From the NCBI RefSeq assembly GCF_030013205.1, contig NZ_CP122648.1: a DNA stretch of 64,000 nucleotides. One strand, given 5' to 3'. Within the stretch, counting starts at the first letter, position 1, and every line of letters begins with the position of its first letter. This DNA is from Escherichia coli (lineage in GTDB: Bacteria; Pseudomonadota; Gammaproteobacteria; Enterobacterales; Enterobacteriaceae). The position numbers are program-made. Shown here piece after piece: positions 19,301 to 20,376 of this stretch.

Positions 19301-20376
19301 AACAACAGAGAATATAATGATGCAGGATTTGCGTCTGATATTAATCATTGTTGGCGCGATCGCCATAATCGCTTTACTGGTACATGGTTTCTGGACCAGC
19401 CGTAAAGAACGATCTTCTATGTTCCGCGATCGGCCATTAAAACGAATGAAGTCAAAACGTGACGACGATTCTTATGACGAGGATGTCGAAGATGATGAGG
19501 GCGTTGGTGAGGTTCGTGTTCACCGCGTGAATCATGCCCCGGCTAACGCCCAGGAGCATGAGGCTGCTCGTCCGTCGTCGCAACACCAGTACCAACCGCC
19601 TTATGCGTCTGCGCAGCCGCGTCAACCGGTCCAGCCGCCGCCTGAAGCGCAGGTACCGCCGCAACATGCTCCGCGTCCAGCGCAGCCGGTGCAGCAACCC
19701 GTGCAGCAGCCTGCCTATCAGCCGCAGCCTGAACAGCCGTTGCAGCAGCCAGTTTCGCCACAGGTCGCGTCAGCGCCGCAGCCAGTGCATTCAGCACCGC
19801 AACCGGCACAACAGGCTTTCCAGTCTGCAGAACCCGTAGCGGCACCACAGCCTGAGCCTGTAGCGGAACCGGCTCCAGTTATGGATAAACCGAAGCGCAA
19901 AGAAGCGGTGATTATCATGAACGTCGCGGCGCATCACGGTAGCGAGCTAAACGGTGAACTGCTTCTTAACAGCATTCAACAAGCGGGCTTCATTTTTGGC
20001 GATATGAATATTTACCATCGTCATCTTAGCCCGGATGGCAGCGGCCCGGCGTTATTCAGCCTGGCGAATATGGTGAAACCGGGAACCTTTGATCCTGAAA
20101 TGAAGGATTTCACTACTCCGGGTGTCACTATCTTTATGCAGGTACCGTCTTACGGTGACGAGCTGCAGAACTTCAAGCTGATGCTGCAATCTGCGCAGCA
20201 TATTGCCGATGAAGTGGGCGGTGTAGTGCTTGACGATCAGCGCCGTATGATGACTCCGCAGAAATTGCGCGAGTACCAGGACATCATCCGCGAAGTCAAA
20301 GACGCCAACGCCTGATACACTTAAGGCAAATTAACTCCTCTTCGAACCCCCGCTTGTCGGGGGTTTTTAGCATTGA

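Follow-up and report, generated by a model that had tools for sequence, protein, structure and literature searches.

The zipA gene in the window analysed here (the whole stretch of 64,000 nucleotides of the Escherichia coli contig NZ_CP122648.1) encodes a common, 332-amino-acid form of ZipA, and the 328-amino-acid form of K-12 is very probably the result of a slippage-type, in-frame deletion that removed one of two ancestral, adjacent PVQQ units from a linker whose exact length is weakly constrained. The protein and its domains are known, and more than 2,300 complete E. coli genomes already have the exact window allele annotated as their RefSeq ZipA. In itself, this allele matters little, being an ordinary RefSeq ZipA with a known disordered tether. 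Of modest use is that the K-12 protein of 328 residues, on which almost all biochemical work has been done, would be a derived deletion allele and not the ancestral form of the species. The gene also constitutes a clean, small example of the way in which chance short repeats in a low-complexity coding sequence can give rise to in-frame length polymorphism. No paper on zipA length polymorphism was found in the literature searched, but the polymorphism itself is unsurprising.

ZipA is an essential protein that anchors the FtsZ ring to the membrane, and zipA is essential in K-12. The window is a chromosomal segment of E. coli, collinear in reverse orientation with K-12 MG1655 from 2,553,011 to 2,488,106, at about 97% identity. 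The zipA frame is delimited mechanically as an open reading frame of 349 amino acids with a GTG start (19266-20315, + strand). The start was placed at the ATG ATG at 19317, following the identical annotated RefSeq gene, so that the coding sequence extends from 19317 to 20315 (+ strand; 999 nt, 332 amino acids plus stop). The zipA gene of strain K_EC180 (WP_001328398.1) is 100% identical at the DNA level, and its RefSeq ends are the same. The identification of the gene as zipA, made earlier from the sequence alone, is borne out by the TIGR02205 septum_zipA equivalog (413.6 bits for a cut-off of 119.65, E 6e-124), by the Pfam domain PF04354, ZipA_C (amino acids 198-321, E 3e-46), and by the gene order cysZ-zipA-ligA, found in the window, in K-12, and in at least 20 other genomes. 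Structures are matched as well: the full-length ZipA of PDB 9iue aligns with an E-value of 3e-210, and the chains of 1F46, 1F47, and 1F7W align to residues 189-332. As 9iue consists of 18 chains of the full-length, 328-residue ZipA, structural work also uses the K-12 allele. A promoter and terminator scan around zipA yielded no signal above shuffled sequences.

The translation displays the ZipA layout, with one membrane anchor, then a charged region, then a linker rich in proline and glutamine. The N-terminal anchor covers 22 residues (about amino acids 7-28; 19335-19400, + strand), the hydrophobic run as read in the translation spanning amino acids 5-26, and is followed by a region rich in K, R, D, and E (amino acids 29-85; 19401-19571, +). 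The P/Q-rich disordered linker comes next (amino acids 86-189, corresponding to 86-185 in K-12; 19572-19883, +), and then the C-terminal domain for FtsZ binding, delimited by the PF04354 and PDB matches (amino acids 198-321; 19908-20279, +). The limits of the anchor, the charged region, and the linker follow the domain scheme of K-12 ZipA (PMC6904479), in which residues 86-185 constitute an intrinsically unstructured P/Q domain, which flexibly tethers the globular FtsZ-binding domain to the membrane helix (PMC6904479, citing Ohashi et al. 2002). Given its 98% identity to the studied K-12 protein, the window ZipA is expected to bind FtsZ and to be needed for division. Two alternative-frame open reading frames of 101 amino acids each overlap the linker (19534-19839, + strand, and 19543-19848, - strand), and are taken to be stop-free by-products of its GC-rich, few-codon composition, not genes.

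The K-12 MG1655 gene (b2412, NP_416907.1) is 987 nt long and encodes 328 amino acids, so that the two lengths given in the earlier note, 332 residues here and 328 for K-12, agree with the window frame and with b2412, and the linker peptide quoted there matches the translation exactly. The reference gene thus differs from the window gene in both length and repeat count, as it holds a single unit. Both proteins are encoded at the same locus, share their domain order, and do not differ in the anchor, in the charged region, or in the FtsZ-binding domain, whereas the window protein has one PVQQ unit (12 nt) more, together with five substitutions (S88P, P107Q, R120H, S152P, and S170P), all in or next to the linker, within residues 88-170. 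In both the protein and the DNA alignments, the only length difference is a 12-nt gap at 19689-19700, GTGCAGCAACCC. Window positions 19686-19709 encode PVQQ-PVQQ (CCGGTGCAGCAA followed by CCCGTGCAGCAG), and K-12 has a single PVQQ. Unit 1 (CCG GTG CAG CAA; 19686-19697, + strand) and unit 2 (CCC GTG CAG CAG; 19698-19709, +) share an exact 8-nt core, GTGCAGCA, at 19689-19696 and 19701-19708, respectively, and the gap can, therefore, be placed at nine equivalent positions. In the K-12 unit, CCG GTG CAG CAG, the 5' end is that of unit 1 and the 3' end that of unit 2.

The frequency of the two forms was determined in 5,426 complete E. coli genomes, using as a megablast and blastn query the 112 nt centred on the indel (19642-19753). 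The gene zipA as such is found in 5,425 of the 5,426 genomes. The long, two-unit class (at least 95% identity) comprises 2,375-2,382 records, or about 43-44%, this share being a range because the records with partial matches sit inside the identity classes, mostly in that of at least 95%. The short class (80-90% identity, with the 12-nt gap) comprises 3,042-3,045 records, or about 56%, and partial matches, covering less than 80% of the query, account for 69-71 records (about 1.3%). In total, 98.7% of the genomes carry one of the two major alleles. Carriers of the long allele include O157:H7 and O25b:H4-ST131, and those of the short allele include K-12, NCTC86, O111:H8, and O178:H19; we take these strains to correspond to phylogroups E and B2 on the one hand, and A and B1 on the other. 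The ZipA proteins of O157:H7 and ST131 (e.g., WP_001299866.1 and WP_001296279.1) belong, with that of K_EC180, to the same 332-residue, two-unit class as the window, from which they differ only by 0-1% nucleotide substitutions. Two zipA matches lie on plasmid-typed records, one genome has zipA in two places, and one has no match; as K-12 cannot do without zipA, problems of assembly or labelling are the likely cause. That the 12-nt difference should itself be a sequencing or assembly artefact of the window is hardly credible: low-complexity, GC-rich sequence can be error-prone in some technologies, and nothing specific speaks for an error here, but more than 2,300 complete genomes, obtained independently, have the 999-nt gene annotated, one copy being 100% identical, and the difference is in-frame.

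The earlier note had regarded the greater length of the window protein as consistent with one extra PVQQ unit. The size of the difference is exactly that, one PVQQ, but its polarity is most likely the reverse, two units being the ancestral state and K-12 carrying the derived deletion, so that there is no 'extra' unit in the evolutionary sense. This reading is based on the chimeric nature of the K-12 unit, the unit pattern of the outgroups, and the nesting of the short alleles, which together indicate that two units are older. The K-12 unit, with the CCG of unit 1 and the CAG of unit 2, is the exact product of a deletion between the cores. Its duplication would yield identical copies, and two later substitutions would then be needed to obtain the window sequence. 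In E. albertii and two other Escherichia species, the zipA site holds two or three units. These are 18-nt QPVQQP units, the first ending in CAA and the last in CAG, and, like those of the window, they are followed by P-A/V-Y codons. Three copies are found in Escherichia sp. E1V33, two in 'E. coli' SCPM-O-B-8794 (a separate GTDB species), and two degenerate ones in E. albertii. The copy number at this site of the linker has, therefore, been altered repeatedly within the genus.

A neighbour-joining tree of 18 taxa (16 E. coli genomes and two outgroups) was built from 8,494 gap-free columns of a single 8.5-kb locus, ptsI-cysK-cysZ-zipA-ligA-yfeH, and rooted on E. albertii. All seven 328-residue alleles form a monophyletic group, nested among the 332-residue lineages, in 179 of 200 bootstraps. 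E. coli recombines, and with 16 genomes and one locus in the tree, the 12-nt deletion may have recurred independently a few times, or gene conversion may have taken place. The 328/332 split looks like one old event that follows phylogeny, and not like ongoing rapid slippage.

The opposite polarity, in which the K-12 single unit would be ancestral and the long allele derived by tandem duplication of PVQQ in the lineage of the window, is an unlikely account. It has in its favour that slippage can also expand repeats, as one genome with a fresh three-unit expansion illustrates, and that the nearest sampled outgroup, Escherichia sp. MOD1-EC7003 (96% identical), possesses a single unit (CCG GGG CAG CAA CCG CCC TAT). 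This unit, however, ends in CAA and not in CAG, with a different junction and context, and is, therefore, read as the product of a separate loss. Moreover, duplicating the K-12 unit CCGGTGCAGCAG gives identical copies, whereas those of the window differ at 2 of 12 positions, and these two positions fit the first-unit/last-unit pattern of the other Escherichia species. The rooted local tree, in which the short alleles are nested as one clade, argues against it as well.

Besides the two major forms and including them, at least nine linker length alleles exist in E. coli. They were retrieved by junction-specific searches and from individual zipA loci, which covered all but about 26 of the 69 atypical records. 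The further alleles encode 336, 315, 308, 305, 303, 300, and 295 amino acids, and most are flanked by direct repeats of 7-10 nt. All length alleles of E. coli zipA are in-frame, and all the variation is inside the linker. The alignment of zipA alleles across strains, which the earlier note had proposed as a check, thus places indels at the boundaries of short repeats. The idea that the approximately 69 E. coli records poorly covered by the query carry the MOD1-EC7003 allele was ruled out, the best identity being 94.9%, and that allele is present in none of the E. coli genomes.

The 336-residue allele, found in one genome (strain 700481), contains three units, GTGCAGCAACCC twice and then GTGCAGCAG, and its sequence is exactly that predicted from one backward slip. 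The other six are deletion alleles. The 315-residue form lacks 39 nt between two copies of the 10-nt direct repeat TGCAGCAGCC (19702-19711 and 19741-19750, + strand), and occurs in 7 genomes from cattle, humans, frogs, and wastewater, on two SNP backgrounds. An 8-nt repeat, CAGCAGCC, bounds both the 60-nt deletion of the 308-residue allele (at least 3 genomes) and the 111-nt deletion of the 295-residue allele (1 genome). The 300-residue allele, carried by 30 genomes, corresponds to an 84-nt deletion on the short-allele background, between two copies of the 7-nt direct repeat CGCAGCC (19681-19687 and 19777-19783, + strand). The deletions of 39, 60, 84, and 111 nt therefore all lie between exact direct repeats of 7-10 nt. 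For the 303-residue allele (75-nt deletion, 1 genome), the junction shows 4 exact nucleotides within an imperfect 15-mer. The 305-residue allele (69- or 81-nt deletion, at least 2 genomes) shows a candidate microhomology, GCGCAGCCG, located by eye; for this allele in HCP5S3_I2, the nearest sampled haplotype is no fewer than 6 mismatches away, and the parental-haplotype computation lends GCGCAGCCG no support. Removing the inter-repeat stretch from a sampled full-length haplotype reproduces five of the six deletion alleles with 0-1 mismatch. The singletons (336, 303, and 295 residues), whose genomes are among 700481, PCP06021, and EM10-18-28, might conceivably have arisen in culture or during assembly.

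The 300-residue protein, without 28 linker residues, is encoded by NZ_CP027331.1 and 29 other genomes, which measure 5.3-5.6 Mb and come from flies and meat as well as from humans and cattle; one of them is labelled O103. These carriers look like a clonal lineage living with a much shorter tether. At the extreme of the series, natural alleles exist without up to 37 of the about 103 linker residues, meaning that natural isolates can do without as much as about a third of the linker. Across 39 species of Enterobacteriaceae, ZipA ranges from 307 to 358 amino acids, while the non-linker part is constant (213-217 amino acids), length change being confined to the linker (91-143 amino acids, with 39-55% P+Q).

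The earlier note had also presented the linker as a repetitive tract of PxQ/PVQQ units. The two adjacent PVQQ units are there, but they do not form part of an array, and short repeats are at chance level. In composition, the linker (amino acids 86-188) contains 29% P, 24% Q, 16% A, and 10% V, P and Q together making up 53%, compared with 4-5% each in the rest of ZipA. Tandem Repeats Finder, run on zipA at its lowest threshold (score 30), returned no array (0 rows). The sole tandem repeat in the linker is the pair of 12-nt units, identical at 10 of 12 positions with the 8-nt exact core; otherwise, the repeat search detected only loose families at 61-75% and scattered 9-11-mers. The repeat content was compared with that of 2,000 codon shuffles, and residue shuffles were also made. 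Both the number of repeated 8-, 9-, and 10-mers and the length of the longest exact repeat are typical of the codon shuffles (p about 0.5-0.7). Repeated hexamers lie at the borderline (0.05), and recurring protein 4-mers show a marginal excess (p about 0.03), partly due to PVQQPVQQ itself. An exact tandem duplication of four amino acids arises in 7% of the codon shuffles, and an in-frame tandem 12-mer matching at 10 of 12 positions in 21%. As the repeat content is at the level of the shuffles, the repetitiveness follows from the use of very few codons and not from an organised repeat: the linker is a compositionally biased, low-complexity sequence, not a periodic repeat array.

These data also bear on the proposal that the linker is a functional, hypermutable contingency repeat, or that its length is adaptively tuned, for example, to set how far the Z ring lies from the membrane. 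The number of length alleles within E. coli, the 28-residue deletion common to 30 genomes of human and bovine origin, the identical 39-nt deletion on two SNP backgrounds, and the variable QPVQQP copy number among Escherichia species are all compatible with it. The proposal is nonetheless very unlikely, since the linker has no array and no more than two imperfect units, the repeat content is what composition leads one to expect, and the variants are all in-frame length changes without on/off switching. In addition, the two alleles that make up 98.7% of the genomes track the local phylogeny, the three-unit form is seen once in 5,426 genomes, and four residues more or less in a random coil of about 100 would change its mean extension by about 2%. 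A contingency locus of the simple-sequence-repeat type was accordingly rejected on two counts, namely the lack of an array of several near-perfect units (just two are present, at 10/12 identity) and the lack of switching.

The deletion of 12 nt in an ancestral two-unit linker, which we prefer as the origin of the K-12 allele, would have occurred by replication slippage, or by misalignment of the two 8-nt GTGCAGCA cores, most likely once, in the ancestor of the lineage comprising K-12, NCTC86, O111:H8, and O178:H19. The restricted codon set of the linker (CAG, CCG, GTG, GCG, and few others) would generate many short direct repeats by chance, and these would allow occasional further in-frame deletions or expansions. 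The indels have the features looked for in slippage: they are bounded by direct repeats, one copy of which is kept at the junction, and both contraction (the 12-nt deletion) and the reciprocal expansion (the three-unit allele of strain 700481) are present. From these features, we infer a slippage mechanism. The earlier statement that the tract is prone to slippage thus stands as regards the short direct repeats flanking the indels, but it has to be tempered by the major split, which looks like one old event. The linker is slippage-prone over evolutionary time, and not as a fast switch.

The classic lacI deletion spectra described by Albertini et al. in 1982 reportedly consist of deletions and duplications arising between short direct repeats by slippage, and the 2001 review by Bzymek and Lovett is said to attribute deletions and duplications at short direct repeats to replication slippage. 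As in slippage indels of the lacI type, one copy of a direct repeat of 7-10 nt is retained at the zipA junctions, and the events that are common or recurrent stem from the closest and longest repeats (8 nt spaced by 12 nt, 10 nt spaced by 39 nt). Unlike the lacI spectra, the zipA indels are natural alleles of an essential gene, comprising in-frame products only, and are known from sequences and not from rates.

As the linker is a disordered tether, its exact length would be weakly constrained. Using square-root-of-N scaling, we estimate that four additional residues in a coil of about 100 make its contour about 1.5 nm longer, and change its mean extension by about 2%. The effect of these residues is expected to be negligible and is probably harmless, and the 328/332 difference would be neutral or nearly so, since both alleles are found in very successful lineages, isolates live without a third of the linker, and the linker is disordered. 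The C-terminal linker of FtsZ and the proline/glutamine-rich linker of FtsK are likewise length-tolerant, disordered linkers of the divisome. Like that of ZipA, they are low-complexity, disordered spacers that differ in sequence and length from taxon to taxon, between domains that are conserved, but they belong to different proteins, and the tolerance of ZipA is known here from natural alleles alone. It is distinctly unlikely that ZipA linker length is a selectable trait, with the alleles of 295 to 336 residues altering the reach of the FtsZ anchor, the geometry of the Z ring, cell size, or fitness. If it were, the allele series would offer a ready-made set of natural mutants for tether length.

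Outside zipA, the window differs from K-12 by several insertions and deletions. A 1.75-kb insertion between gltX and yfeD (31198-32950), absent from K-12, is an element of the IS200/IS605 family. It carries a truncated Y1 transposase of 94 amino acids (31403-31690, - strand; profile positions 1-78 of 121) and a full TnpB of 402 amino acids (31698-32906, + strand), with OrfB_IS605 and a Cas12f1-like TNB domain. The window also has two IS200-like copies, each about 0.7 kb long (36421-37136 and 62212-62918), which encode identical Y1 transposases of 152 amino acids; the former is located between nupC and pdeA, a gap that in K-12 contains IS186C instead, and the latter adjoins yfdV/yfdE, with a short target duplication. 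Conversely, the window is without about 1.4 kb of K-12 (2548184-2549594) at 3418-3459, which includes yfeW (PBP4B), and without about 0.96 kb (2537704-2538666) at 12843-12847, which includes yfeS, and a 128-bp stretch of K-12 is missing near 7855-7860.
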